NCBI GenBank assembly: GCA_963736855.1 | Contig: CAVTQK010000017.1 | Location: 1 to 64,000 of the forward strand | Source: an uncultured delta proteobacterium | GTDB taxonomy: Bacteria > Desulfobacterota > Desulfobacteria > Desulfobacterales > UBA2156 | Direction of reading: 5' to 3' | DNA: 64,000 bases | In this document: piece by piece, positions 5,436 to 62,429 of the stretch | Layout of the letters: the number at the start of each line of letters is the position of its first letter | Position numbering within the stretch: position 1 is the stretch's first letter | The notes under the pieces: generated by a model | Told to the model about the DNA's origin: nothing | Seen by the model: the letters and a program-made list of their open reading frames with translations, nothing else | The model's database searches: none | Position numbers and translations under genes: made by a program

Positions 5436-6389
5436 ATGACATTCCTCCGGCGAAAGCTGCTTCATTTTTTCTTGACCGTTCTGATTGTCTCGGCAATCAC
5501 CTTTGCCATGATCGATCTTCTGCCCGGCGACGCGGCCATCGTGTTCACCGGCCCGGAGGCGTCGGTCGAAACCGTTGCGGCGATCCGGCATGAAATGGGT
5601 TTGGACGCCCCTGCCATCGTGCGCTATTTTCACTGGATCGGGCGTGCCGTAAGCGGTGATCTTGGTGTGTCCATGGTCACACAGGAACCGGTGTGGGATG
5701 CCCTGGTGGTGCGATTGCCCGTCACCCTCGAACTGCTGCTGTTTGCCCAGTTGATGGCGCTGTCTCTGGCGATCCCGGCGGCCATGATCTGCGCGAGAAA
5801 GCCAGGTGGTACGGTCGACAGGATTTTGACCACTGCCGGTTTCGCATCCCTTTCCATTCCGAATTTCGTGATGGCCATCCTTCTCGTCTTCTTTTTCGTT
5901 CTGCGCCTCAGGTGGCTGCCGGCAACCAGCTTTGCGCCTCTTTCCGACGGGCTGGCGGCGAACGTGCGAAGCCTGCTTCTTCCCGGCCTGAGCATAGCGC
6001 TGGTGGAGTGGGTCATCCTCTTTCGGGTCCTTCGCAGTGATCTCATTACCACCCTGGGGGAGGACTTCATCCTCATGGCACGCTCGAAAGGACTGAGCAG
6101 CGCCCAGGTCCTGTTCCGGCACGCCCTCCGCCCTTCCTCTCTCAACCTGCTTACGGTCATCGGGCTCCAGATGGGCCACCTCATCGGCGGGGCCCTTGTT
6201 GTGGAAACGATTTTCGCCCTGCCGGGCATCGGTCGGCTCCTTGTAACGGCCATCTACTCGCGGGACATTTTCATGATACAGGGGTGTGCGCTCTGGATCA
6301 CCCTCGGATATGTGAGCATCAACCTGCTCGTGGACGTCTTGTATGCCGTCTTGGACCCGCGCATACGACTGGAGCGCGTCAATGCCTGA
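5436..6389 (+). CDS. Peptide/nickel ABC transporter permease (DppB/OppB-like)
   Basis: LLPGDAA, GDLGVS, EAA loop (MARSKGLS), ETIFALPGIG and LYAVLDPRI. Confidence 0.93.
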   Translation: MTFLRRKLLHFFLTVLIVSAITFAMIDLLPGDAAIVFTGPEASVETVAAIRHEMGLDAPAIVRYFHWIGRAVSGDLGVSMVTQEPVWDALVVRLPVTLELLLFAQLMALSLAIPAAMICARKPGGTVDRILTTAGFASLSIPNFVMAILLVFFFVLRLRWLPATSFAPLSDGLAANVRSLLLPGLSIALVEWVILFRVLRSDLITTLGEDFILMARSKGLSSAQVLFRHALRPSSLNLLTVIGLQMGHLIGGALVVETIFALPGIGRLLVTAIYSRDIFMIQGCALWITLGYVSINLLVDVLYAVLDPRIRLERVNA

Positions 6390-18122: not shown

Positions 18123-19616
18123 TCAAAACATGAGTTCGACGATTTGGGCTAAGGGCTGCCAATAAATACCTAATCCAAAGGTGGGGATCATCAGAGTAAT
18201 GAGGAGCAATTGCGAACCAAGAGATATTTCGGGATAGTGGGATTCAGTCGCGGGTTCCAGAAACATGGCTTTCACGATTCGCATGTAGTAGTAAAGCGAA
18301 ACCACTGTGTTGAGCGCAGCGACTACGGCCAGCCAGTAAATTTCGCGGGAGATCACCGCGATAAAAAGGTAAACCTTACCGACGAAGCCGGCAAAGGGAG
18401 GAAGTCCGACTAGAGAAAACAGAAAAACAGTCATGGCCACGGCGATAAAGGGCGATTGATTCCCAAGCCCGCGATAAGAATGAATCTCTTCGCTCTCGAC
18501 CGTGCCTCCTAAAATCGCCACTACGGCAAATGCGCCTAAATTCATGAACAGGTAAACCGCCATATAAAAAATGACCGCCCTCAGCCCTATGCGGCTCAGG
18601 CTTGCTAATCCCATGAGCAGATAGCCTGCATGGGCGATGCTGGAGTAGGCTAAAAGTCGCTTAACATTTGTCTGGGGGATAGCCGCCAGGTTTCCCCAGG
18701 TCATGGTAACAGCAGAAATGAGAGCCAAGATGGCGGGCCAATTCAGGCCTATTGCGGCTGTATAAAGCTCATTCCCTTCTCGGGTGGCAAACAGGGGATA
18801 GAACAGGCGAATAAACAGGGCAAAAGCAGCACACTTCGGACCCACGCTGAGAAACGCGGTAACGGATGTCGGTGCGCCCTCATAGACATCGGGGCACCAA
18901 AAGTGAAAAGGAAAAGAAGCGGTTTTAAAGAGCAGACCGACCAGAAAAAACAGCATGGCGGTAATAAGAAGCAGCCGGTTGTGGGGTTGTGCGCTCGCCG
19001 ATGCGATTGCCTGGCTGATGCCGGAAAGTTCTGTTGTTCCGGCCGCACCGAAGACCAGGGAAAATCCGAACAACATAATCCCCGAGGTAAAAGCGCCATA
19101 GAGTATATACTTCAAGGCAGCCTCGCCACTCCTCAGTTCACGGGCTTTGATCCCTACGAGCAGATAGCTCAAAATGCCCATTGTTTCAAAAGCAACGTAG
19201 ATCATCAGCAAGTCGGTCGCGGCCACCAGCATCATCATGCCGATGGTTATAACTAAAACGAGAAACACCGATTCATGGTAATACTGATCTTCGATCTCTT
19301 TGCTGCCGTAAATCAAAATGATTGTCACACCACCGACAACGGCAAAAAAAGGTTTGAAGAAACAACTCAGCCAATCCCAAATGAAGAGATTCGAGAGGTA
19401 GGGGATGTTTCCGCCGGGTGAAGGAAGCACCATGAGAGGAACAAGCGATAGGCCCAATGCCGCCACTCCAATCAATGTGAAAACCATCCGATAACGCCAA
19501 TAGGGGATGGCTATCCCTGTTATCAGCAGCAGCAGGGCGCCTGTGGAAAGCACAATTTCAGGGCCAAGAAGCGAAAGGCTCCGGATGTTGTCAACGATGA
19601 AAGCTTCGGCGGTCAA
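18123..19616 (-). CDS. nuoN: Complex I-like oxidoreductase subunit N
   Basis: EAALKY, FKTASFPFHFWCPDVYEGAP and KRLLAYSSIAHAGY. Last gene of the operon. Confidence 0.95.
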   Translation of the reverse strand: MTAEAFIVDNIRSLSLLGPEIVLSTGALLLLITGIAIPYWRYRMVFTLIGVAALGLSLVPLMVLPSPGGNIPYLSNLFIWDWLSCFFKPFFAVVGGVTIILIYGSKEIEDQYYHESVFLVLVITIGMMMLVAATDLLMIYVAFETMGILSYLLVGIKARELRSGEAALKYILYGAFTSGIMLFGFSLVFGAAGTTELSGISQAIASASAQPHNRLLLITAMLFFLVGLLFKTASFPFHFWCPDVYEGAPTSVTAFLSVGPKCAAFALFIRLFYPLFATREGNELYTAAIGLNWPAILALISAVTMTWGNLAAIPQTNVKRLLAYSSIAHAGYLLMGLASLSRIGLRAVIFYMAVYLFMNLGAFAVVAILGGTVESEEIHSYRGLGNQSPFIAVAMTVFLFSLVGLPPFAGFVGKVYLFIAVISREIYWLAVVAALNTVVSLYYYMRIVKAMFLEPATESHYPEISLGSQLLLITLMIPTFGLGIYWQPLAQIVELMF

Positions 19617-19641: not shown

Positions 19642-21144
19642 TCAGCGCAAGATCAAGTCTACGGTGTGTTTAAGGCTTGTGCCGATCAGATCCAGCAGCG
19701 GCATGGGATAAAACCCGAGAAGCACCACGATCAGGGCTAAAGGTGTCAGTGTAAATACTTCGCGCAGGTTGATATCCGGAAGGCCGGCATACTGCTCCTT
19801 GACAGGTCCTAAAAAAACGCGCTGCATGGTCCAGAGAAAATAGCCTGCCGTGAGGACGATTCCTGAGGTTGCCGTAATCGTATAGACTCGATACTGCTGG
19901 AATGAACCGATCAGCACCAGGGCTTCACTGATGAAGCTGGAGAGCCCAGGTAACCCTAAAGCCGCAAAAAACGCTAGACCGGTATATCCCGCGTAGATCG
20001 GCATGGTTTTGGCGAGTCCGCCGAAACCGTCGATCATGCGGTGATGGGCACGGTCGTAGATCACCCCTACCAGAAGAAAGAGCATGGCGGTCACTGTGCC
20101 GTGGTTGAACATCTGCAGAACGGCGCCGTTGATTGCTGTAGTGTTGGTAAATACGGACATACCCAAGACCACAAAACCCATGTGGCTGATGCTGGAATAG
20201 GCAATCAGCTTCTTAAGATCCTGCTGGGCCATGGCACAGAGGGCGCCGTATATAATACTGATCACACCGAAAAGAGCCACGTAGGGAGCAAAGACAAAAG
20301 CCATGTCCGGAAGCAGGGGGTAAGAAATCCGTAAAATCCCATAAGCCCCCATTTTCAAAAGAACGCCGGCCAGAATGACGCTGACGGCAGTCGGCGCTTC
20401 CACATGGGCATCCGGGAGCCACGTATGAAGAGGGACCACCGGTATCTTGATGCAGAAGCCGATGAGAAGTGCGAAGTAGCAGAGCCAGCGGATGGTCGTG
20501 TTTAGAAGCAGGCTTTGGTGCATGCTCTGATCGGCCAGGATAGTCAGATCAAAAGTGTGCAGGCCCGTAGTCGGTTCGGCCGACCCGAAGAAACAAATCA
20601 CCATGACGATGAGCATCAATACGCTGCCCACCAGCGTGAATAGGAAGAATTTGATGGCGGCGTATTCCTTTTTGGGACCACCCCAGACTCCGATGAGGAA
20701 GTACATGGGGAGCAACATCAGCTCCCAAAAAACATAAAACAGGAAGAAATCCAGAGCGCAGAAAACGCCCATCATACTGGTATCCAGCAGCAAAAAAAGG
20801 GTAAAATAGCCCCGGACGTGCTGCCGGATGTTCCAGGAAGCGACGATGCACAGGAAGGAGAGCATGGCTGTCAGCAGGACCATGGGAATGCTGATCCCGT
20901 CGATTCCCACAGAGTAGCTTATGTTGAAAGCTTTTATCCAGGGTACCCTTTCCACATACTGAAATGCCGTGTCTGCCGGATCGAATCGGTTATAGAGCTT
21001 GGCCACCCACCAAAGCGGAATAGCGGTGCTGATGAGAGCCAGAGTCTTCATCAGGTTGGGAAAGCGTTTGGGCACAAAGAGGATGGCACCCGCCCCCACC
21101 AGCGGGGAAAAAATAATCCAAGACAGTAGATGTTCGGCAAACAT
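19642..21144 (-). CDS. nuoM: Complex I-like oxidoreductase subunit M
   Basis: GIDGIS, FYVFWE, KIPVVPLHTWLPDAHVEAPT and LAGVLLKMG. Confidence 0.96.
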   Translation of the reverse strand: MFAEHLLSWIIFSPLVGAGAILFVPKRFPNLMKTLALISTAIPLWWVAKLYNRFDPADTAFQYVERVPWIKAFNISYSVGIDGISIPMVLLTAMLSFLCIVASWNIRQHVRGYFTLFLLLDTSMMGVFCALDFFLFYVFWELMLLPMYFLIGVWGGPKKEYAAIKFFLFTLVGSVLMLIVMVICFFGSAEPTTGLHTFDLTILADQSMHQSLLLNTTIRWLCYFALLIGFCIKIPVVPLHTWLPDAHVEAPTAVSVILAGVLLKMGAYGILRISYPLLPDMAFVFAPYVALFGVISIIYGALCAMAQQDLKKLIAYSSISHMGFVVLGMSVFTNTTAINGAVLQMFNHGTVTAMLFLLVGVIYDRAHHRMIDGFGGLAKTMPIYAGYTGLAFFAALGLPGLSSFISEALVLIGSFQQYRVYTITATSGIVLTAGYFLWTMQRVFLGPVKEQYAGLPDINLREVFTLTPLALIVVLLGFYPMPLLDLIGTSLKHTVDLILR

Positions 21145-21213: not shown

Positions 21214-23283
21214 TCAAAACAAAAGCAGTATGACGTATAGACCGAAAACTCCAAAAGCCACCGAGTAAAGGTAGTGTTGAATCTTGCCGGTATGCAGGCG
21301 GCGGAGCTGATCCCCGCACTTTTGAACGACCCCTGCCAGGCCGTTCACGGCTCCGTCTACCACCTGCAGGTCCTCCCAGCCCACCAGCACGGCGAGCTTC
21401 GCGGTGAGCCAGGATGTCAGGTTCACTATGGCGTCGATTCCGTTCAGGTCAAAATGCCCGGCTATTTTGGCAAGTTTCACCATCGGACGTATGAAAAGAA
21501 ACTGGTAGAGCTCATCCACAAAGAACAAACGGCTGAGCATCCGGTAAATGCCGGCAAACCGTGAGGCGGCCCGCGCAGGAATCTCGGTGTGTTTGACATA
21601 ACAAAGCCAGCCGCCGCAGATTCCGGCTAGGGCCACAGCCGAGGAAAGTCCCATCAGCAGGACTTCCATCCCATAGGCGTGGGCAATGGGATCGGAACCG
21701 CCATGATCGCCGAGCACCGGTTTTAAGAAACTCTCAAGTGCATGGGGCAGATGAGTCGAGGCTGGAAGCCCCATGGCTCCGCCGATCACAGCCAGCACGG
21801 CAAGAGCTATCAAAGGCCCGGTCATAACCGGTGGAGACTCATGCAGGTGATGCGCCTCTTCCGGAGTGCCGCGATATGTGCCGGCAAACGCCAGGATGAC
21901 CAGCCGAGTCATGTAGAAAGCCGTCAGGCTGGCAGTTATCAGGCCCAAAGCCCAAAGCGCTTTTCCCAATCCGGGAATGGGCAGATGGCTGGTGAAGGTG
22001 GCCCAAAGGATTTCGTCTTTGCTCATGAACCCCGATAATGGGGGTACTCCGGAAATGGCCAAGTACCCGGCCATGAACGTCAGGAATGTCCGCGGCATAT
22101 AGCGCCTCAGCCCTCCCATCTGCTGGAGATCATTGTGGTGCACGGCATGGATGATACTGCCGGCCCCGAGGAAAAGCAGGGCCTTGAAAAAGGAATGTGT
22201 TACCAAGTGAAAGATCCCCGCGCTGAAAGCCGCAACCCCAACCGCCAGGAACATAAAACCCAGTTGGCTGATGGTGGAGTAAGCTAAAACGCGCTTGATG
22301 TCGTTTTGAACCACAGCCAGGGTAGCCGCTCCAAAGGCGGTTACCCCTCCCACAATGGCGACCACAGCCAGGGCGGCAGGTGCCGACAGGAAAAGAAAAT
22401 TGAGCCGGGCAATCATATAAACTCCGGCTGTGACCATGGTGGCGGCATGAATAAAGGCGCTTACCGGTGTGGGGCCCGCCATGGCATCGGGCAGCCAGAC
22501 ATACAGCGGGATCTGTGCCGACTTGCCGGTTGCACCCACGAATAATAACAGGGCTACCCAGGTAGCCACTTCGATGTTCCAAATCGGGCGTACGGTCATC
22601 AGCCGGGGCATGGCTTCTTGCAACTGCCCGAAGCTCAAACCGGTTACTGCGCCGCCGCTCGTTTCGAAGAGAGTCCAGAATAGGAGCATCAAGCCCACAA
22701 AGAAACCGAAATCTCCCACGCGGTTTACAATGAACGCCTTCATTCCGGCCCGAGCCTTATCCAGATCGGTGAACCAGAACCCGATGAGCAAATAGGAGCA
22801 AAGGCCGACCCCTTCCCATCCCACGAACATGACCAGCAGGTTGTCCGCCAGTACCAGCAGCAACATGGAAAAGGTGAAGAGGTTCAGATAGGCAAAGTAG
22901 CGCGGTTGGCTGTCATCGCCGGCCATGTATCCCACGGAGTACAGGTGAATGAGGAATCCCACCCCGCTGACGACCAGGCACATTACAGCGGATAAAGGGT
23001 CCATGCGGAAAGCCAGTTCCAGGCTGAAACACCCCTGATCCCAGCTGATCAGAAGCCATTGATACAAGGATTGGATCACGAGCCGCTCTGTTGGCTCTTC
23101 GATGCCAAGGAGAGTGAAAAAACCTGCCACCGCGATCCAGAAGGAAAGAAACACACTGACGCAGCCGATCACAGGCACGGCTCGGCCGGGGAGTTTCTTC
23201 CCCAACAACCCGTTCATCACCGCTCCCGCAAGGGGCAGGCAGGGGATTGTCCAAATCATCGACTGTATGCTCTGAGGACTCAA
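21214..23283 (-). CDS. nuoL: Complex I-like oxidoreductase subunit L
   Basis: GWEGVGLCSYLLIGFW and GKSAQIPLYVWLPDAMAGPTPVSA, with a long C-terminal extension. Confidence 0.96.
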   Translation of the reverse strand: MSPQSIQSMIWTIPCLPLAGAVMNGLLGKKLPGRAVPVIGCVSVFLSFWIAVAGFFTLLGIEEPTERLVIQSLYQWLLISWDQGCFSLELAFRMDPLSAVMCLVVSGVGFLIHLYSVGYMAGDDSQPRYFAYLNLFTFSMLLLVLADNLLVMFVGWEGVGLCSYLLIGFWFTDLDKARAGMKAFIVNRVGDFGFFVGLMLLFWTLFETSGGAVTGLSFGQLQEAMPRLMTVRPIWNIEVATWVALLLFVGATGKSAQIPLYVWLPDAMAGPTPVSAFIHAATMVTAGVYMIARLNFLFLSAPAALAVVAIVGGVTAFGAATLAVVQNDIKRVLAYSTISQLGFMFLAVGVAAFSAGIFHLVTHSFFKALLFLGAGSIIHAVHHNDLQQMGGLRRYMPRTFLTFMAGYLAISGVPPLSGFMSKDEILWATFTSHLPIPGLGKALWALGLITASLTAFYMTRLVILAFAGTYRGTPEEAHHLHESPPVMTGPLIALAVLAVIGGAMGLPASTHLPHALESFLKPVLGDHGGSDPIAHAYGMEVLLMGLSSAVALAGICGGWLCYVKHTEIPARAASRFAGIYRMLSRLFFVDELYQFLFIRPMVKLAKIAGHFDLNGIDAIVNLTSWLTAKLAVLVGWEDLQVVDGAVNGLAGVVQKCGDQLRRLHTGKIQHYLYSVAFGVFGLYVILLLF

Positions 23284-23287
23284 CGGC

Positions 23288-23617
23288 TTATCCGCGCAAC
23301 TGTTGATATTGCTCTACATCGACCGTCTTTAGAATGCTGTAAAGCGACAGAACAATCGCCATGACCGCCGCCGCCTCGGCTGCAGCGATGGCGATAACAA
23401 ACAGGGCAAAGACTTGCCCGCTGATCAGCGAAGCCCCTTCGGGCGCTTCCAGAAAACGGGAAAATGCGACAAAATTGAGAGCGCCCGCGTTCAGTACAAG
23501 CTCAATTCCCATGAGCACCCCGATGGCGTTCCGACGGGTGAGGACCGTAAAAAGGCCAAGGCAAAAAAGAAGGGAACTGACCACTAAAAAGCTCGATAGA
23601 CTGTAAGTCATGATCAC
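23288..23617 (-). CDS. nuoK: Complex I-like oxidoreductase subunit K
   Basis: RRNAIGVLMGIELVLNA and GQVFALFVIAIAAAEAA. Confidence 0.95.
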   Translation of the reverse strand: MIMTYSLSSFLVVSSLLFCLGLFTVLTRRNAIGVLMGIELVLNAGALNFVAFSRFLEAPEGASLISGQVFALFVIAIAAAEAAAVMAIVLSLYSILKTVDVEQYQQLRG

Positions 23618-24159
23618 TCACCTTTTTGTTTCCGTCTGATAATGAAGACTGAAGGGGAGAGTTCGCTGCGAACGCTGTGCCGAACGATCAACACCGCCCC
23701 GACCAAGGCTGCAAGGAGCAGCAGAGAGACCACTTCAAAGGGGATCAGGTATTTGCCGAGCAACAGGTTGCCGATCGCTTGCGATGTGGGGGTGGGCGGA
23801 GGCGGCGCAGACCGGACCGGCCAAAGGAAATGGGTTACCGCCACCATCAGCGCCGCGAGAATGATCCCTGTGAGGCCGGCGGCCAAAAGCCGGCCGGGAA
23901 GGTTCACCGACAATGGTGAGAGCCTTGTGCCCTGGGTCATCATGACTCCGAAGATAATCAGTACCAGAATCCCTCCGATGTAAATGATCACCTGAACGAC
24001 CCCGACGAAATCGGCGCCCAGCATCACAAAAAGCCCGGCAATGCCGAAGAGGGTGAAGAGCAGAGAGAACGCCGCATGCACGATGTTGCTCGAAAGCGCT
24101 ACCCACAAAGAGGGGATGATCGCCATCAGCACGAAAACGTTAAATATGATCGTTTTCAT
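23614..24159 (-). CDS. nuoJ: Complex I-like oxidoreductase subunit J
   Basis: QVIIYIGGILVLIIFGVM and PFEVVSLLLLAALVGA. Start moved to the ATG at 24159 (MKTIIFN). Confidence 0.93.
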   Translation of the reverse strand: MKTIIFNVFVLMAIIPSLWVALSSNIVHAAFSLLFTLFGIAGLFVMLGADFVGVVQVIIYIGGILVLIIFGVMMTQGTRLSPLSVNLPGRLLAAGLTGIILAALMVAVTHFLWPVRSAPPPPTPTSQAIGNLLLGKYLIPFEVVSLLLLAALVGAVLIVRHSVRSELSPSVFIIRRKQKGE

Positions 24160-24766
24160 CTTCTTTCTTTCCCTTCCGACTTTTTTCCGGTTTTTGCGAA
24201 GCTTCCGCCGACAGGCGCAACCGCTCGCGCCGCAATTCGGCCGGGATGAATTCTTTTGCCAAGGCATCGAAGTCAAAGGTATTGGCTTCGAATTGACGCG
24301 TGAAAAAAACCGCATCCGTAGGGCAACTTTCCACACAGAGTCCGCAGAACATACATTTGGCATAGTCAACGGTATAAGTCAGCGGTACCTTGCCCTTGCG
24401 GCCCTCAATCCGCACTCCCTTCACTGCGATGACATCAATGGGGCAGATCTGCATGCACAGCAAACACGCAATGCATTGTGGTTCATTGTAGCCGAGCAGT
24501 CCCCGGAACCGGTCCGCAACCCGGTTGTTCAGCGGCCCACGATAGTTCTGGGCGGCGCCCAGAAGGAGCTCGAAGGGTTGCTTGGCGGAACCTTCAGGCA
24601 AAAGGGCGTCTTTAGGTTTTCCCTCGAAAACGTCATAGGATGGGTACTGAAGGGTCACTTTGCGCTCGAAAAAAGCGGTTTTAAAGGTGATCCACATCCC
24701 GGTAGCGATCGTGCTGACGCTCTCGTAAATGTTGCGGAAATAATTCGCGATGCTGCCGGGGATCAT
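24140..24766 (-). CDS. nuoI: Complex I-like oxidoreductase subunit I (2x[4Fe-4S])
   Basis: TLQYP, RFRG, CIACLLCMQICP and CMFCGLCVESCP. Confidence 0.94.
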   Translation of the reverse strand: MIPGSIANYFRNIYESVSTIATGMWITFKTAFFERKVTLQYPSYDVFEGKPKDALLPEGSAKQPFELLLGAAQNYRGPLNNRVADRFRGLLGYNEPQCIACLLCMQICPIDVIAVKGVRIEGRKGKVPLTYTVDYAKCMFCGLCVESCPTDAVFFTRQFEANTFDFDALAKEFIPAELRRERLRLSAEASQKPEKSRKGKKEDENDHI

Positions 24767-24779
24767 GGACCAACCTTCC

Positions 24780-26120
24780 TTAAGGATTGAAGAGGCACAG
24801 CCAAAAGCCCTGGCCGACTAGGCAAACGAATCCCAAAGGGATCATGTATTTCCAGCACACGCTCATCAACTGGTCCACGCGCAGCCGGGGCAATGTCCAG
24901 CGCCACAACAAGATCACGAAGGCAATTGCCATCGCCTTGAAAAAAAAGGTCAGGAATGGAACGAGATACTGAAAAACAATCTCATAAATCGACGGGAGCC
25001 GACTGCGCAGGGGCCAGTGCATGAGCAATGCCATGGCGGCGAAGGCGGCGAGCAGGCCCAGGAACAGCAATTCCGAGTTGATGCGCACCAATCGACTGGG
25101 CAACAAGGCCGATTTGCGATGCACATCGGCGCCAAATGCCCGCATCGCTTTCCAAGCAAACCAGATGCAAGGCAGCGTTGCGATCATCAAGGCCGACAGA
25201 ACGTGCGGATACCTCAGGGACTCTCCCACCTTTCGGCCGATCGGCCCCAGAGTCTCGGCATCCTCCAGCCCCGGCAGTTGCCAGCCTCCGAGGAAACAGA
25301 TGACGGCGATGGAACTCACCACATAGATGTTGCTGAACTCCGCCACAAAAAAAACACCGAAGCGCATTCCGCTGTACTCGACGTTATAGCCTGCCACCAG
25401 CTCGGATTCGGCCTCTGGGATATCGAAGGGGATCCGGTTGATTTCCGCTATCGATGTCGTGAAGTAAATAAAGAAAGCCAAAATGCAAAACGGGCTGTTG
25501 AAAAGAAACCAGTGCTGCACACCGCCTGCTTGTGCCTGAATGATACCCTGCACGCTCATGGTACCGGCCGTGAGCACAACCACCAGGATGGCTAGGGCAT
25601 TGGGGATCTCATAGCTTACGATCTGAGCGGCCGAGCGCATGCCGCCTAGCAGCGCCCATTTGTTATTCGACGCCCAACCCGCCATGATCAGCCCGACCAC
25701 CGTGAAGGACCCCGTAGCAAGGAGATAAAAGACCCCAATGTTCAGATCGCTGATAATGAGCCTGGGACCGAATGGGATTACGACAAAGGAAAGTGCGGTA
25801 CCGAGCAGAACCAAGTAGGGCGCAAATCGGAAAAAAGCGCGGTCGGCTTCCGCAGGGATAATATCTTCCTTTAAGATGAGTTTAACCCCGTCTGCCACGA
25901 ACTGGGCCAACCCATAAGGTCCCACACGATTGGGTCCGCGGCGGGAATTGGTCCACCCGGCCAGCTTGCGTTCCAAAAATGTGAAGAGGCCCCCCATGAT
26001 GCCGAAAAAATTGAGGACCGCCAGGCCGCCGGCCAGCATTACCACAACGGCCGTAGCGTCATGGCCGATCATCTGGAAAAGGGTGAACTCGCGGTAGAGA
26101 TCATTAACCAGGTTGTTCAT
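24780..26120 (-). CDS. nuoH: Complex I-like oxidoreductase subunit H, extended (446 aa)
   Basis: ERK, RRGPNRVGP, ADGVKLILKE, NRIPFDIPEAESELVAGY and PRLRVDQLM. Confidence 0.95.
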   Translation of the reverse strand: MNNLVNDLYREFTLFQMIGHDATAVVVMLAGGLAVLNFFGIMGGLFTFLERKLAGWTNSRRGPNRVGPYGLAQFVADGVKLILKEDIIPAEADRAFFRFAPYLVLLGTALSFVVIPFGPRLIISDLNIGVFYLLATGSFTVVGLIMAGWASNNKWALLGGMRSAAQIVSYEIPNALAILVVVLTAGTMSVQGIIQAQAGGVQHWFLFNSPFCILAFFIYFTTSIAEINRIPFDIPEAESELVAGYNVEYSGMRFGVFFVAEFSNIYVVSSIAVICFLGGWQLPGLEDAETLGPIGRKVGESLRYPHVLSALMIATLPCIWFAWKAMRAFGADVHRKSALLPSRLVRINSELLFLGLLAAFAAMALLMHWPLRSRLPSIYEIVFQYLVPFLTFFFKAMAIAFVILLWRWTLPRLRVDQLMSVCWKYMIPLGFVCLVGQGFWLCLFNP

Positions 26121-26192: not shown

Positions 26193-27305
26193 CTACCGAT
26201 CAATTTCAGGTGCGATCAGATCCAGACTGGCGACCAGAGTCACCAGGTCAGACACCATCAGGCCGGGGGCAATCTCTTCCACAATGCTCATGGCCGAGAA
26301 AGAGCCCGTGCGGATCTTGAGCCGATAGGGTCGATCTTCACCATGGCTGATGATATAAAAGCCCAATTCGCCCCTGGGAGCTTCCGTGCGAACATAGATT
26401 TCGCCAGGCGGCGGTTTCAATTTTTTTTTCGACCGGTTCCAGTACGAGTCATTAGGCATTTTGGAAACGCACTGACGCACAATACGAGCGCTCTCGACCA
26501 TCTCCAGAATGCGTACCCAGTAGCGACTGTAGCAATCGCCCAACTCTGTATGGGAAGGGGGTCTGACGACCTCGAACTTCAGCTCCGGATAGATGGAATA
26601 CGGTTCATCCCGTCTCAAATCCCAATCGACACCGGAAGCTCTCAAGTTCGGCCCCACCAGGCCATAGCCAAGAGCGTCTTCGCGACTGATAACGGCAACC
26701 CCTGAGAGGCGCTCCTTAAAAATCTTGTTATTCGATATCAACCGGTTGTATTGGTCCAAACGGGGCTCGAAGTAATCCAGGAAGTTACTGACGCGTTCAA
26801 GAAACCCTGCGGGCAGATCAAAGGATACTCCTCCGAAGCGCATGTAATTATAAGTCAGCCGCGCCCCACAGAGCTCTTCGAAGAGGTCGTTGACCCATTC
26901 CCGCTCTCTCAGGGCATGGGTGAATGGGGTGACGGCGCCCATGTCCAGCGCAAAGGTGCCGACCGAAATCAAATGGCTGATGATGCGGTTGAGCTCCGCG
27001 ACCAGCACCCTAATATACTCTGCCCGCGGGGGTACTTCGATCCCGGCTAGACGCTCCACTCCAATGGCGTATCCGAAGTTACAGTTCATGGCCGCCAGGT
27101 AGTCGATTCGGTCGGTATATGGCATGAACTGGGGATAGCTGACTTTTTCGGCGATTTTTTCAAGGCCGCGGTGCAGAAATCCCACATCCGGCCTGCATCC
27201 GTAAATGACTTCCCCGTCTGTGCGCAGGATAAAGCGCAACACGCCATGGGTGCTTGGATGGTGTGGGCCCATGTTGAGGATCATTTCTTCAGTGATAAAT
27301 GACAC
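26193..27305 (-). CDS. nuoD: Complex I-like oxidoreductase subunit D
   Basis: NMGPHHPSTHGVLR, LHRGLEK, DRIDY, EAPRGE and C-terminal EIDR. No NiFe CxxC motifs. Confidence 0.96.
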   Translation of the reverse strand: MSFITEEMILNMGPHHPSTHGVLRFILRTDGEVIYGCRPDVGFLHRGLEKIAEKVSYPQFMPYTDRIDYLAAMNCNFGYAIGVERLAGIEVPPRAEYIRVLVAELNRIISHLISVGTFALDMGAVTPFTHALREREWVNDLFEELCGARLTYNYMRFGGVSFDLPAGFLERVSNFLDYFEPRLDQYNRLISNNKIFKERLSGVAVISREDALGYGLVGPNLRASGVDWDLRRDEPYSIYPELKFEVVRPPSHTELGDCYSRYWVRILEMVESARIVRQCVSKMPNDSYWNRSKKKLKPPPGEIYVRTEAPRGELGFYIISHGEDRPYRLKIRTGSFSAMSIVEEIAPGLMVSDLVTLVASLDLIAPEIDR

Positions 27306-27328: not shown

Positions 27329-27901
27329 TTATGAAGAAATTTTGACCGAGATTCTCGGGTCGTCCGGAGCAATTTCAGTGGGGGCCGCTTTTTCCCTGAC
27401 CGTGCTGATGTTTCGGTAGGCCTTCAATTCCTGATAATCTTTCAGCAAAGGATGGCCTTGCCAGTCAGGGGGGAGCAGCAGTCTGCGAAAATCCCTGTGC
27501 CCGACAAAGTGTATCCCGAACATGTCGTAGACCTCTCGCTCCAGCCAACCGGCTCCCGGCCACACGTCCGAAACCGAATCTATTCGAAGATAGAAATGGG
27601 AAAGAGCCAATGGTCGCTCCAGCTTCACTTTTAACACGAGGCGATGACGGTGGCGGATTGAATAAAGATGATAAACCACCTCCAGCATTTCCGGTTCACC
27701 CAGCTGGTGAACGCCACTCAGGTTCATCAGGGTGTCGAAGGCGCATTGGGAATCCTCTTTCAGGAAAAAAGCGATTTGGTGCAGCTTTTCTTTCGGGACA
27801 ATAAGATATGAATCTCCGCGCGCGACCCCCGTCCATACGAGGTCGGCTATCCCCAGTGCTTCTTCCAATCTTTTTTGGATATGCTCGGCCTGCATCAGCA
27901 T
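27329..27901 (-). CDS. nuoC: Complex I-like oxidoreductase subunit C
   Basis: [17 protein letters not shown] and GHPLLKDY. Confidence 0.95.
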
Positions 27902-28392
27902 TTTTCAACCAGAAAGCGCTCCCGGCTGATCTTCTCCTGCAGCAATAAAATCCCATTAGTCAGGGCTTCCGGCCGAGGGGGGCAACCGGGCACATAGACA
28001 TCGACAGGCACGATTTTATCAACGCCTTTGACAACGGAATAGCTGATTTGGAAAAGGCCGCCGCAATTAGCGCAACTGCCCATGGCAATCACATACTTGG
28101 GTTCCGCCATCTGGTCATAAAGCAGGCGCAATCGCGGAGCCATCTTATACGTAAGGGTCCCGGCCACGATCATCAGATCGGACTGCCGTGGTGTGGCTCG
28201 AAACACGCTTCCTATGCGATCAAGATCTGTGCGCGGACCACCGGCCTGCATCAGCTCGATGGCTCAGCATGCCAGGCCGAAAAGGAGATACCAGATCGAT
28301 GAGAGCCGGCACCAGTTGAGAGCCTGATCCACGGTGGTGAAGACCGCACCCCAAAATCCCTGGGAGGGCAGCTTGGAGTATAGATGAGGCAT
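27895..28392 (-). CDS. nuoB: Complex I-like oxidoreductase subunit B with in-frame TGA at codon 43 (candidate selenocysteine)
   Basis: Manual translation from the ATG at 28392 (GGAG RBS upstream) gives [61 protein letters not shown]. It continues in frame into ORF 27895..28251 ([21 protein letters not shown]), 165 codons in total. Confidence 0.93.
28216..28263 (-). promoter_or_regulatory. Putative bacterial SECIS hairpin directly 3' of the nuoB UGA
   Basis: Minus strand reads UGA GCC AUCGAG CUG A UGC A GGCC GGU GGUC CGC GCA CAG AU CUUGAU CGC. The nested pairs are AUCGAG/CUUGAU, CUG/CAG, UGC/GCA and GGCC/GGUC. The G-led apical loop (GGU) starts 21 nt after the UGA. Folded by eye. Confidence 0.7.
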
Positions 28393-28418
28393 ATCCGTTC
28401 TCCATTCTCATTCACAGA

Positions 28419-28868
28419 TTAGACAGCGACCGGTTTTTCTTCATCTAAAAGAATCCGTTCCTTTGGAGTTTCGGGTACTTCCTTGCTCCATTTGAAATCC
28501 GCATGGCGCCCCAGGTAGATCAGTCCAAGAAAGAGAACGGCCAGGAAGAAAACGATCTCACCCAGGACCAGGATGCCGTAGCCTGCCTGGCGCCATTCGC
28601 GAAAGACGACGACGCACGGAAAAACGAGGGCCAGCTCGATGTCGAAAATCAGAAACGCCAGGGCCACCGCGTAAAAGCGGAAATTGAAGGGGATCCATGC
28701 CGAACCGACCGCCCGCTCCCCGCATTCGTAAGTGGTGTACTTGTCTGGAAAAATCGACACCTGGGGGGCAAGGATCCTGGATACCGCGATGATGACGAAG
28801 CTCATCAGCAGCCCGAGAATGATGAACACGAAAACATTTGCGAAATCAAATAACAAGGCGAACCTCAC
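28419..28868 (-). CDS. nuoA: Complex I-like oxidoreductase subunit A
   Basis: KYTTYECGE and RFYAVALAFLIFDIE. Confidence 0.95.
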   Translation of the reverse strand: MRFALLFDFANVFVFIILGLLMSFVIIAVSRILAPQVSIFPDKYTTYECGERAVGSAWIPFNFRFYAVALAFLIFDIELALVFPCVVVFREWRQAGYGILVLGEIVFFLAVLFLGLIYLGRHADFKWSKEVPETPKERILLDEEKPVAV

Positions 28869-28910
28869 GGGGCAAAAAAAAGATTGTTTTTAATGTCACC
28901 GGGTTTCGGC

Positions 28911-30942: not shown

Positions 30943-31770
30943 ATGTTTAAAATAGTCAAGCGCGAGGAAATGTCGAGCGGCACGGTGATTCTCAATGAAA
31001 TCGAGGCGCCCCTCATCGCTAAAAAGGCCAAACCCGGACAGTTCGTCATCCTCAAGGCCAATGAGACCGGCGAGCGGATTCCGCTCACTATGGCGGACGC
31101 GGATCCGGAAAAAGGCACCATCACCGTTATTTATATGGTGGTTGGAAAATCCACAGCCCTGTTCAAGACCTTAAAGGTCGGGGATGGATACCAGGACGTC
31201 ATCGGTCCTTTGGGAAAAGCCACCCATCTGGAAAAAGTCGGAACGGTGGTCTGCGTCGGCGGCGGCACAGGGATCGCGGTATTGTATCCCATCACAAGAG
31301 GGCTCAAGCAGATCGGGAATCGCATCATCAGCATCATCGGCGCCCGCAGTAAAGACATCCTCATCCTGGAAGACCGGATGCGGGCGGTTTCAGATGAATT
31401 GTATCCATGCACCGACGACGGGTCTTACGGGCATCATGGATTTGTTACGGAAGTTCTGAAAGAGGTCCTTAAAAAGCAGAAGGTCAACTTGGTGGTCGCC
31501 ATCGGACCGGTTCCCATGATGAAATTCGTTTCCAAGATCACCAAGGAATTCGAAGTGCCCACCATCGTCAGCCTAAACCCCATCATGGTGGACGGCACCG
31601 GCATGTGCGGCGGATGCCGCGTCAGCATCGGCGGAAAGAACAAGTTCGCCTGCGTGGACGGTCCTGAATTCGACGGCCACCTGGTAGATTACGATGAACT
31701 GATGTTGCGGCTTCAGGCATACTGCGAAGAGGAAAAACGGTGTCATGAGAGTTTCTGCCGGTTGCACTAA
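30943..31770 (+). CDS. nfnA: Electron-bifurcating transhydrogenase small subunit (NfnA/SudB-like)
   Basis: PGQFVIL, ERIPLT, GGGTGIA and DGTGMCGGCRV...ACVDGPEFD ([2Fe-2S]). Confidence 0.9.
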   Translation: MFKIVKREEMSSGTVILNEIEAPLIAKKAKPGQFVILKANETGERIPLTMADADPEKGTITVIYMVVGKSTALFKTLKVGDGYQDVIGPLGKATHLEKVGTVVCVGGGTGIAVLYPITRGLKQIGNRIISIIGARSKDILILEDRMRAVSDELYPCTDDGSYGHHGFVTEVLKEVLKKQKVNLVVAIGPVPMMKFVSKITKEFEVPTIVSLNPIMVDGTGMCGGCRVSIGGKNKFACVDGPEFDGHLVDYDELMLRLQAYCEEEKRCHESFCRLH

Positions 31771-31842
31771 GCCATGTGATCTCAATCCATTTTTTTGTTT
31801 TGGACCCCGAAAGCTGTTTTTAAGGAATCAAGGAGTGATTTG

Positions 31843-33252
31843 ATGGAAGAAAAAGAAAAAAAAAGGAAGATCCCCCGACAACCCATGCCCGAGCAGGATC
31901 CGAAAGTCCGGGCAAGAAATTTTATGGAAGTTCCCCTGGGATACACACCGGAATTGGCCATGATGGAGGCTGAAAGATGTCTTCAATGCAAGAAACCTTC
32001 TTGTGTGGAGGGTTGCCCGGTAAGTGTGGATATCCCCGGCTTTATCCGGCATATCAAAACGGGCGAATTTACCCAGGCCATCCGCAACTTGTGGTCCAAG
32101 AACAGCCTTCCCGCCGTGTGCGGGAGGGTATGCCCCCAGGAGATCCAGTGCGAAGGATCTTGCATTCTCGGGAAGAAGGAAGCCCCGGTGGCCATCGGGA
32201 ATCTGGAACGGTTTGCAGCGGATCATGAGCGGGCCCACGGGACCGGTGAATTGCCGCCCAAGGCTGCGCCTACCGGAAAGAAAGTGGCGGTTGTAGGTTC
32301 CGGACCTTCCGGACTCACTGTCGCCGGGGACCTGATCGTCAAGGGTCATGAAGTCATCGTTCTGGAGGCGTTCCATAAGCCGGGCGGGGTTCTCGTTTAC
32401 GGAATTCCGGAATTCCGCCTTCCGAAAGAAATCGTGGCCCAGGAAGTCAATTTTCTGGAGCGCCTGGGAGTCAAGGTGGAATGCAACGCCGTTGTCGGAC
32501 GCACCATAACCCTGGATGAGCTTTTCGAACAGGGATATGATGCAATTTACATCGGTGTGGGTGCCGGTCTGCCGAAATTCTTGAACGTCCCCGGAGAAAA
32601 CCTGGTCGGAATCCTGTCGGCCAATGAGTACCTGACCCGGGCGAACCTCATGAAAGCCTACCTTTTTCCGGAAGTGGATACGCCCATCCCCCGGGGCAAG
32701 AACGTCATCGTCCTGGGCGGCGGGAATGTGGCCATGGACTCGGCGCGAACCGCCATGCGGCTGGGTGCGGACAGCGTGCGGATCGTGTATCGTCGGTCCA
32801 AAGCCGAACTTCCTGCAAGGGCGGCGGAAGTTCATCACGGCGAGGAAGAGGGGATCGAATTTTTCTTTCTGACCAACCCGACCCGGTACCTGGGAAACGA
32901 GAAGGGCCGGCTGGTCGGCATGGAATGCCTGAAAATGGAATTGGGCGAGCCCGATGCTTCCGGTCGGCGACGTCCTATCCCCATCAAGGGATCCGAGTTC
33001 ACTATGGAGTGTGACCTGGTGGTGGTGGCGGTGGGATCCGGGGCCAATCCGCTGCTGACGAGTTCCACTCCGGACATGACTCTCAACAAATGGGGGTATA
33101 TCCAGGCCGATCCGGAAGACGGTAAAACGACGAAAAGGGGGGTGTGGGCCGGCGGCGATATCGTCACCGGCGCGGCCACCGTCATCCTGGCCATGGGTGC
33201 AGGCCGGAAAGCCGCAGACTCAATTCATAAATACCTGACCTGGGGCTGGTAG
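31843..33252 (+). CDS. nfnB: Electron-bifurcating transhydrogenase large subunit (NfnB/SudA, GltD-like)
   Basis: EAERCLQCKKPSCVEGCPV, CGRVCPQE.QCE, GSGPSG, GGGNVAMD and GGDIVTGAATVILAMGAG. Paired with nfnA, with no gltB adjacent. Confidence 0.9.
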   Translation: MEEKEKKRKIPRQPMPEQDPKVRARNFMEVPLGYTPELAMMEAERCLQCKKPSCVEGCPVSVDIPGFIRHIKTGEFTQAIRNLWSKNSLPAVCGRVCPQEIQCEGSCILGKKEAPVAIGNLERFAADHERAHGTGELPPKAAPTGKKVAVVGSGPSGLTVAGDLIVKGHEVIVLEAFHKPGGVLVYGIPEFRLPKEIVAQEVNFLERLGVKVECNAVVGRTITLDELFEQGYDAIYIGVGAGLPKFLNVPGENLVGILSANEYLTRANLMKAYLFPEVDTPIPRGKNVIVLGGGNVAMDSARTAMRLGADSVRIVYRRSKAELPARAAEVHHGEEEGIEFFFLTNPTRYLGNEKGRLVGMECLKMELGEPDASGRRRPIPIKGSEFTMECDLVVVAVGSGANPLLTSSTPDMTLNKWGYIQADPEDGKTTKRGVWAGGDIVTGAATVILAMGAGRKAADSIHKYLTWGW

Positions 33253-61034: not shown

Positions 61035-62429
61035 TCAGCTTTTCTCCTGCGCCATAAGTTGTGATTCAATGACACGCATTCGTTTCCATTGTCCTTGGCG
61101 GTAACGCAGCATGAAAGCCATGCCGAGGGCACATACATAAACCGTGGCGATCGTCCATGCCGCATAAATCCCTGCTCCCACAACCTCTACCGCAACATAA
61201 ATCGGTATGATCATTACTCCGAGGCATAGCGCCGAAATCGTCCACATGATAAAGCGCGTGTCGCCGGCTCCTTTGATAGCGCTTGAGAAGATGAGGTTGA
61301 GCGCGTCGAAGAAGGAAAACGCGGCGACAAAACGCAGGAGAATGACCCCAAGGGCCATAATCTCGGCATAGTGGTTATGGGTGTGCTGATCGTTTCTGAA
61401 CAGGCGGAGGAGCGGTTCGGGCGTAAGGACGAACACCCCGGCCAGAAACATCATGTAAATGAGCGTGATGTGAATGGCGCTGGTAGTGGCGTAAGCGCCC
61501 TCTTCCGGCCGACCGCGGCCGATAGCCTGCCCCATCAGAGTCGCATTCCCGATGTGAAAGCCCACCATGGGAAGAAAGGATAGGGACTCAATGGAAAGAA
61601 CGATGTTGGAGGCCGCTAACTCCAGGTCCCCGAGCCGGCCCAGCATCTGAATAAAAAACGTGAATCCGAAAATCTCCAGGAAGAACTGGATACCGCTGGG
61701 CATGCCGTACCGCATCATCCGGCCGAAGAGTTCTCTGTCCAGGGCCCTGGCGCTCCATGTGGCGAATCGGGTCCGGTTCCCCTTGCGGAAAATGAGAATC
61801 ACAAGAACAACCGTGGTCGTGGCTGAAGCGATAACGGTAGCGAGGCCTGCCCCGAAAATGCCCAGTTCCGGAAACGGCCACACCCCGTTGATCAAACAGT
61901 AATCCAGTGGGATATTGACTGCCGCACCGATCACGTTGACGATCATAACGGTCCAGGTCAGACCCCGGCCTGTGTAAAAGCAGGCCATGACCGAATTCAG
62001 AACCACGATGCCCGCGCCCAGTGTGAGGATATTGAAGTAGGCCACCTCAAGAGACCGGATACGGGGCGAATGGCCGATCAGCTCAAATATCCTGTCGGAC
62101 ACAAAAACCATCAAGGCAAGGAGGACTGCGGCTGCCAGGGAGAAATAAATTCCCTGCCACAGGGAGGCGCCAACTCGGCTAAAAGCGCGGGCCCCTGTAT
62201 ACTGGGCGACGAAGACGTTCGTGTAATTGGCAACGCCCATGAAAAAGGAGATGAACGTGAAGGAGGCGATACCGGCCGGCAGTGCAGCGGCTATGGCATC
62301 CACAGAATAGTTTGCCAAAAACACCCTGTCCGTGAACTGCATGACCGTGAAGGATCCCATGGAAGCGACCAGCGGCAGGCTGATCGCCAGCACCTCACGG
62401 TACCCATTGAGTTTTGACCATCGCTCCAT
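61035..62429 (-). CDS. MATE family efflux transporter
   Basis: TDRVFL, AQYTGA, NIPLDY.LI.G, PELGI.GAGLAT and KGAGDTRF. Start set to the ATG at 62429. Confidence 0.92.
   Translation of the reverse strand: MERWSKLNGYREVLAISLPLVASMGSFTVMQFTDRVFLANYSVDAIAAALPAGIASFTFISFFMGVANYTNVFVAQYTGARAFSRVGASLWQGIYFSLAAAVLLALMVFVSDRIFELIGHSPRIRSLEVAYFNILTLGAGIVVLNSVMACFYTGRGLTWTVMIVNVIGAAVNIPLDYCLINGVWPFPELGIFGAGLATVIASATTTVVLVILIFRKGNRTRFATWSARALDRELFGRMMRYGMPSGIQFFLEIFGFTFFIQMLGRLGDLELAASNIVLSIESLSFLPMVGFHIGNATLMGQAIGRGRPEEGAYATTSAIHITLIYMMFLAGVFVLTPEPLLRLFRNDQHTHNHYAEIMALGVILLRFVAAFSFFDALNLIFSSAIKGAGDTRFIMWTISALCLGVMIIPIYVAVEVVGAGIYAAWTIATVYVCALGMAFMLRYRQGQWKRMRVIESQLMAQEKS

Follow-up and report, generated by a model that had tools for sequence, protein, structure and literature searches.

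An in-frame UGA at a ligand position of cluster N2 in nuoB of an uncultured Desulfobacterales bacterium: a probable selenocysteine-containing subunit of a complex I-like enzyme

The stretch of DNA analysed here (hereafter, the window) comprises 64,000 nucleotides (nt), positions 1 to 64,000 of contig CAVTQK010000017.1 in assembly GCA_963736855.1, from an uncultured delta proteobacterium of the order Desulfobacterales. Its minus strand carries an operon for a complex I-like enzyme, in which nuoB (27895..28392) is interrupted by a single in-frame TGA, codon 43 (28264..28266). Very probably, this TGA is a selenocysteine (Sec) codon, and the product would then be a NuoB with a Cys-Sec pair on the iron-sulfur cluster N2. 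Quinone receives its electrons from N2, a cluster whose ligation by tandem cysteines is unusual and has long figured in discussions of coupling in complex I. A Sec-containing NuoB had been proposed in an earlier note on this DNA; the proposal is supported by the position of the codon at a Cys that ligates N2, by the presence of selA to selD, by the same TGA in two other genomes, by selection on the reading frame, and by contigs from other sequencing runs.

Read from ATG 28392 on the minus strand, the nuoB frame spans 165 codons and a stop, with TGA also serving as its terminal stop (27897-27895). The motif around codon 43 is FGLAC-TGA-AIE, where TGA replaces the second Cys of the tandem pair ligating N2. 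The list of open reading frames (ORFs) under translation table 11 contains only a product of 118 amino acids (aa) at this locus (27895..28251, from ATG 28251). Both the truncated ORF and the longer frame with TGA at codon 43 had been described before, and reading the strand confirmed them. The read-through product matches the Pfam family PF01058 (Oxidored_q6) with 102.6 bits at a cut-off of 27 (E 1.7e-29), and in the alignment to the mitochondrial (bovine-type) NDUFS7/PSST chain (E 7.5e-63) FGLACC lies over FGLAC-U, ungapped as printed. The counterparts of U43 are Cys86 of Y. lipolytica NUKM and Cys46 of T. thermophilus Nqo6, an equivalence derived from matched ranges of equal length read as ungapped, the residue-level alignment being printed for NDUFS7 and not for NUKM or Nqo6. 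The ligand positions of N2 in this protein hold three cysteines (C42, C107 and C137) and a UGA, which would complete the set of four if decoded as Sec or Cys. The codons for Cys107 (28072..28074, minus strand; third ligand position, motif GSCANCGG) and Cys137 (27982..27984, minus strand; fourth ligand position, motif PGCPP) leave the GSCA and PGCPP motifs intact, as the earlier note had stated. According to passages of PMC8042128, ligation of N2 by the tandem cysteines is geometrically strained and lies next to the quinone-binding Tyr.

It is important to establish, first of all, that the TGA exists. Logan contigs from four runs (X1-X4) belonging to four studies were compared with the window over 27600-28900, X3 having no coverage of the TGA site. 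The X2 contig (record 6, depth 22) spans the whole of 27600-28900 and carries 39 substitutions and two indels; every tallied substitution is located elsewhere, and 28264-28266 is unchanged. The X4 contig (record 24, spanning 28097-28425) differs solely at 28189. The X1 contig (record 3, spanning 27848-28900) shows 11 differences, none able to make a sense codon at 28264-28266; two of them, one C>T and one G>A, come without a listed position, and a TAA at codon 43 is formally possible. Across these contigs, variants inside nuoB fall at 28354, 28189, 28144 and 28069, that is, in codons 13, 68, 83 and 108. All four are synonymous third-position changes, three of them downstream of the TGA, and no covering contig has an indel in nuoB. 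Since the stop is kept in three further haplotypes from three studies, an assembly error is excluded and the TGA is real. The fact that a close relative, G005, reads TGC here could be held in favour of a base-calling or assembly error; with different haplotypes from three other runs retaining the stop, and with TGA present in two other genomes as well, the probability of such an error is negligible.

The genome to which the window belongs (G000; 25 contigs, 100% complete) was next compared with others of its lineage. In a sample of 401 genomes from the order, 10 possess an orthologue at E<=1e-55; a single TGA is present in the orthologues of G000, G331 and G367. G331 (family f29) and G367 (family f11) represent other families of the same order; their proteins are 87% and 86% identical to that of the window, and both genomes keep the nuoA-B-C-D synteny. 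The TGA column is identical in all three, being the codon after the first Cys of FGLAC, so the search for an independent TGA at the same column, suggested in the earlier note, found it in two other families. Of the 26 other NuoB matches listed for 61 near relatives, none contains a stop, and TGC or TGT, giving Cys-Cys, occupies the codon-43 column in all 14 other motif-bearing loci. Likewise, 108 of the 120 top database matches fit the motif pattern, all of them with CC, the remaining 12 falling outside the pattern used. G005, the nearest relative (same genus; 96% identity in protein, 94.8% in DNA), has TGC at codon 43 in otherwise near-identical DNA; Sec is therefore not fixed in the genus. 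Exact-pattern scans of metagenome and genome contigs, with N at the third codon base, returned three copies identical to G005 in nuoB, all with TGC; these scans may not include records from the genome of the window itself, and the three copies are no guide to how common TGA is.

Selection on the reading frame was assessed by Nei-Gojobori counts of the ratio of non-synonymous to synonymous substitution rates (dN/dS), separately for codons 44-165, past the TGA, and codons 1-42, before it. Past the TGA, dN/dS is 0.03 between the window and G331 (dS ~2, saturated), 0.035 between the window and G367, and 0.04 between G331 and G367, both of which carry the TGA (21 synonymous and 3 non-synonymous changes). 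Before the TGA it is 0.07-0.12. Purifying selection on both sides of the TGA indicates that the two halves are translated in one frame; a pseudogene is thereby ruled out, and a restart downstream becomes less likely. The pseudogene-like decay that the earlier note had named, together with the absence of TGA from relatives, as a ground for giving up its reading is not found at these values.

Two explanations without read-through have to be weighed against these data. According to the first, the TGA is a fixed nonsense mutation, nuoB and the 11-subunit complex are dead or dying, and two NuoB paralogues do the work. Indeed, the genome has two more NuoB genes, both uninterrupted and with Cys-Cys, the TGC of the closest relative means that a single-base change, possibly a recent one, would suffice, and the operon is patchily distributed. 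However, G331 and G367 share the TGA at a dS of ~2 to the window with dN/dS of 0.03-0.04 downstream, the changes between the two are predominantly synonymous (see the counts above), and so are all four variants within the species; the ten other nuo genes are open, and the contigs of nuoB are free of indels. We thus regard a nonsense mutation as very improbable. According to the second explanation, translation stops at the UGA and restarts at Met47, yielding a split or N-terminally truncated NuoB. It has in its favour the 118-aa table 11 ORF from ATG 28251 and the same predicted product in 29 database clusters, yet this product would be without both tandem-Cys positions and residues 43-46, and so could not hold N2 as in the solved structures. 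Moreover, codons 1-42 are under purifying selection in the same frame, and Cys-type orthologues do not differ in the sequence leading up to Met47, so nothing marks a start there. A restart is, in our opinion, extremely improbable.

The 29 clusters just mentioned deserve a separate comment. They consist of truncated database proteins of 116-133 aa, whose first residue is the first Met past the TGA site. Over the shared 118 residues, identity to G331 is 91.5-99% for 28 of them and 84% for the remaining one; some are represented by as many as 27 contigs, or by contigs as long as 57 kb. Their closeness to G331 and G367 suggests that they carry TGA at the second Cys. In a tree of the C-terminal 118 residues, the window falls into a well-supported clade (99/89) with three Cys-type rows, while G331 and G367 group with the truncated rows; the deep branches are not resolved, and the well-supported ones force at least two changes of state between Sec and Cys. 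Exchange of Sec and Cys among relatives is usual in real selenoprotein families. As gene callers truncate such nuoB genes, complex I may be mis-annotated as defective in the organisms concerned.

Decoding of UGA as Sec requires dedicated machinery, and all four genes that the earlier note had proposed to look for, selA, selB, selC and selD, are present in the genome of the window. The tRNA-Sec scores 75.8 bits at a cut-off of 47, with the next match at 44.9 bits, and selB (381 bits), selA (617 bits) and selD (374 bits) all exceed their curated cut-offs. The selD gene carries an in-frame TGA of its own. Family searches for genes with a single in-frame TGA returned four fdhA-like genes, five mvhD matches and one [NiFeSe] hydrogenase large subunit. 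One of the mvhD matches (C9:581000-581350, '1 TGA') was rejected as a frame artefact, its Cys motif SGCHIGDCHY lying in another frame. With this match removed, at least 10 genuine TGA-bearing genes accompany nuoB (selD, four fdhA-like, four mvhD and the [NiFeSe] large subunit), and the organism is thus rich in selenoproteins. TGA still serves as a stop in this genome, as the end of nuoB itself illustrates. A genome-wide codon-usage screen for in-frame TGA yielded 18623 candidates, with neither selD nor nuoB in the top 400. As for G331 and G367, selB is present in both.

Two loci met in these searches merit description in their own right. At C9:581000-581350, a second partial MvhD match occurs in a different frame, pointing to a frameshift or to an indel in the assembly. 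In the gene for the [NiFeSe] hydrogenase large subunit (G000:C9:570949), the one TGA replaces the second Cys of the N-terminal RxCGxC motif (RSCGV-TGA-TLTH), and an 8-bp hairpin with a GGU triloop is present.

Purifying selection and conservation of the TGA demonstrate translation, not the identity of the residue inserted. Hence, one may suppose that the UGA is read through otherwise than as Sec, either as Cys by means of a tRNA-Sec-like Cys tRNA and a SelB paralogue or by near-cognate suppression, in which case the product would be an ordinary Cys-Cys NuoB or a low-yield variant. Systems recoding UGA to Cys with just such a tRNA and SelB paralogue were reportedly described by Mukai et al. in 2016, and G005 has two selB matches over the cut-off, one of them ~100 nt from a second tRNA-Sec-like gene (54.6 bits). 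However, G005, the holder of this second set, is the genome with TGC at codon 43, whereas G000 has one tRNA-Sec over the cut-off (the next match reaching 44.9 against 47) and one full-length selB. Besides, Trp or Arg at a ligand position of an iron-sulfur cluster would not persist under a dN/dS of 0.03, and in G000 UGA stands at established Sec positions in at least 10 genes besides nuoB. Taken together, the evidence makes read-through to a residue other than Sec improbable.

With regard to G005 itself, the two selB matches lie on contigs C75 and C226/C224, two tRNA-Sec-like genes are present, and one selB/tRNA pair is ~100 nt apart on C75. The additional set could be a second recoding system or could reflect a mixed bin.

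Returning to selenocysteine in the window's nuoB, we looked for a selenocysteine insertion sequence (SECIS) 3' of the UGA. The best candidate, H2 (28232..28250, minus strand), consists of 3 bp, a 1x1 mismatch (A·C), 4 bp and a GGU triloop at 28242-28240, in which the pattern GGY is conserved. It begins 13 nt past the UGA, with the triloop 22 nt past it (+25 from its U). In comparison, 8 of 10 genuine selenoprotein genes of G000 have a stem of 6-9 bp and a loop starting with GG at +22 to +27 from the U of UGA. The local folding energy of H2 (-6.6 kcal/mol) is within the range of the genuine SECIS elements of this genome (-4.9 to -12.3). A hairpin of at least 4 bp with a GG loop in that position follows 5.2% of 14368 Cys codons in long ORFs, and one with the extra 3 bp, as good as H2, follows only 56 of the 14368 (0.39%). 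The RNAalifold consensus of the window, G331, G367 and G005 is H2. All four pairs of the upper stem are kept in three of three TGA orthologues and in one of seven Cys orthologues, namely G005 (Fisher p 0.033, uncorrected for relatedness). Overall, H2 is the probable SECIS of nuoB, with modest support.

Several observations weigh against the selenocysteine reading. The hairpin that the earlier note had placed directly after the TGA (H1, 28237..28263, minus strand, loop GAUGCA) does occur in the minimum free energy structure, but in that of the window sequence only. Of 200 shuffled sequences, 145 reach the same stability or better (z 0.65), its base pairing is disrupted or displaced in G331 and G367 as judged by eye, and RNAalifold does not choose it; being no better than chance and not conserved in its pairs, H1 was rejected as a SECIS. 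H2, for its part, is short, having 4 bp, a mismatch and 3 bp where the genuine elements of G000 have 6-9 uninterrupted pairs. It shows no compensatory double change, but one one-sided change from G-U to A-U, and its stem falls in a stretch coding for conserved residues and is unbroken in G005, of Cys type, as well. A covariance model (R1), built from five genuine SECIS hairpins of G000 after two of seven, misaligned by MAFFT, had been left out, gave no match at E<=10 in any of the three TGA-bearing nuoB genes (window, G331 and G367).

The distribution of the codon also counts on this side. TGA at the second Cys is rare and patchy among representative genomes, occurring in three across all samples: the family of G331 has it in 1 of 25 genomes and the genus of G367 in 1 of 23, and a sample of 401 genomes from the class contained no further case. 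The 29 truncated clusters are protein records, which a TGA at the first or at the second tandem Cys would shorten alike. In G331 and G367 (84% and 85% complete), tRNA-Sec was not found at E<=1e-9, with 150 of 591 and 758 candidates scored. Finally, all four runs compared above are represented by contigs, which drop rare variants.

Regarding model R1, it matched five NuoB loci of another type (see below), yet recovered only one of five held-out genuine SECIS elements; a test of such little power is uninformative. Its matches in the window at 61340-61360 and 5546-5567 were rejected, as no in-frame TGA lies at the right distance. A scan of 28100-28400 against Rfam at E<=10 gave no SECIS family, the sole match, SNORD125, being due to chance (E 7.8).

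Another line of evidence comes from a sample of 401 genomes of the phylum, 192 of which have a NuoB match at E<=1e-52, with 81 further matches outside the listing. Among the matches listed, at least 10 NuoB genes besides that of the window, 59-63% identical to it, contain one TGA. In all ten, TGA replaces the first tandem Cys (A-U-C-A); several possess a clear SECIS hairpin, which in three of them (L070-L072) has 8 bp and a GGA triloop at +28. Sec at this cluster thus recurs, and the low identity indicates that the first-Cys genes belong to another NuoB lineage than the gene of the window.

Such evidence induces us to propose the following scenario. UGA codon 43 would be decoded as Sec by the SelB/tRNA-Sec system, SelB being probably recruited by H2, the GGU-triloop hairpin 13 nt past the UGA. 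The product would carry Cys42-Sec43 instead of the tandem Cys-Cys, and N2, the terminal [4Fe-4S] cluster adjoining the quinone site, would bind the selenolate of Sec43 in place of one of its four thiolates. From the sequences, we infer that the inserted residue is Sec, that H2 acts as the SECIS, that Se binds Fe, and that Se tunes N2; by this last step, Se might change the potential of N2 or its quinone chemistry. It is tempting to go further and suppose that Se ligation of N2 was selected more than once, at either tandem position (U-C in one lineage and C-U here), but we hold this to be a tentative and rather doubtful idea. If it were true, Sec would serve to tune the final step of electron transfer and would not be a passive substitute for Cys; in the complex I-like enzymes of anaerobes it could, for instance, alter the potential of N2, or the release and protonation of a tandem ligand that accompany reduction.

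Were the Sec-NuoB reading correct, this would be the first complex I selenoprotein in the searchable literature, and Sec could act as a [4Fe-4S] ligand in a respiratory complex. N2, the most debated cluster of complex I, would bear a natural heavy-atom and 77Se label, accessible to 77Se electron paramagnetic resonance and anomalous scattering. In addition, the existence of first-Cys and second-Cys lineages, together with switching between Sec and Cys among close relatives, makes a comparison of Cys-Cys (G005-like) and Cys-Sec enzymes possible.

One more feature of the N2 ligand region deserves mention. An extra Cys110 stands three residues past the third ligand, the GSCANCGG motif (window 28063-28074, codons 107-110) being common to this NuoB clade in Sec-type and Cys-type members alike. 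The motif is also found in L027, L054, L055, L057, L028 and L030, while other NuoB proteins read GSCA(N/S/C)(G/S)GG. The extra Cys of this clade could be a spare or alternative ligand.

The operon consists of 11 genes in the order nuoA-B-C-D-H-I-J-K-L-M-N, with no nuoEFG beside it, and nuoB lies between nuoA and nuoC/D, an order also kept in G331, G367, G005 and G543. In line with the earlier note, the ten genes other than nuoB (A, C, D, H, I, J, K, L, M and N) are all open, and each matches its own Pfam family. All are on the minus strand: nuoA (28419..28868; PF00507, E 6.3e-24; the ORF is given as listed, and the true start may be later), nuoC (27329..27901; PF00329, E 1.9e-40; its start overlaps the nuoB stop), nuoD (26193..27305; PF00346, E 3.9e-92), nuoH (24780..26120; 446 aa; PF00146, E 5.8e-106), nuoI (24140..24766; 2x[4Fe-4S] ferredoxin-type), nuoJ (23614..24369; PF00499; a TTG-started ORF overlapping nuoI, with the real start probably later), nuoK (23288..23617; PF00420), nuoL (21214..23283; PF00361 and PF00662), nuoM (19642..21144) and nuoN (18123..19616). 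The Pfam match of NuoH extends over residues 34-435 on a profile of 298 positions, which implies ~100 extra residues.

Some further peculiarities of the locus were observed. In the N-terminal part of nuoC (27701-27847), the X2 contig has 23 substitutions within ~150 bp, compared with three across nuoB, and a compensated pair of indels (an A inserted after 27821 and one base lost at 27828); this patch is hypervariable or recombined. In G331 (L054, ~2510-2872), the nuoC and nuoD matches are ~360 nt apart, a spacing not shared by the window, and this gap may hold an inserted gene. Upstream of the nuo operon, on the opposite strand, is an NfnAB/SudAB-like gene pair (30943-33252, plus strand), one member having a DHODB-type iron-sulfur domain and the other being a GltD-like 4Fe-4S flavoprotein.

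Our literature search found no description of a Sec-containing NuoB, although the supplementary tables of selenoprotein catalogues, which were outside the search, could list one. In the main text of a review of prokaryotic selenoproteomes (PMC13188914, 2026), 'Nuo', 'complex I' and PF01058 do not appear; NADH:ubiquinone oxidoreductase is represented there solely by subunit E, which belongs to another family (PF02508). The 2007 paper on an Olavius symbiont (PMC1976440) names 'NADH:ubiquinone oxidoreductase' among known selenoprotein families in the portion available to us, leaving the subunit unnamed. The account of the D. multivorans genome, as far as accessible (PMC5109826), gives five selenoprotein genes, nuoB not among them.

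Finally, we would like to compare the putative Sec-NuoB with known systems. The families tabulated in the main text of the above review (PMC13188914) include FdhA, the [NiFeSe] hydrogenase, MvhD/VhuD and HdrA. In these redox enzymes of anaerobes, Sec replaces a Cys that is a metal ligand (Mo/W in FdhA, Ni in the [NiFeSe] large subunit) or belongs to Fe-S-related Cys motifs (MvhD/VhuD and HdrA); their UGA is decoded by SelB and closely followed by a hairpin on its 3' side, and all of these families occur in G000. With canonical Cys-type NuoB/Nqo6/NDUFS7 proteins (PF01058), the gene of the window shares the domain, the place in the operon, and the GSCA and GCPP ligand motifs, but it differs in the UGA at the second tandem Cys, in the clade-wide GSCANCGG, and in an operon without nuoEFG. 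The 11-subunit complex I-like enzymes without an NADH module (nuoABCDHIJKLMN) have the same gene set and order as here, and the difference is the UGA in the N2-binding subunit. The first-Cys Sec-type NuoB (A-U-C-A-I/L-E) agrees with the window's nuoB in protein family, cluster and tandem motif with UGA, and in an apical loop over the same Gly codon, ~25-28 nt downstream. In that type, however, Sec stands one residue earlier (the equivalent of Cys85/Cys45), and the SECIS of L070-L072 is much stronger than H2.

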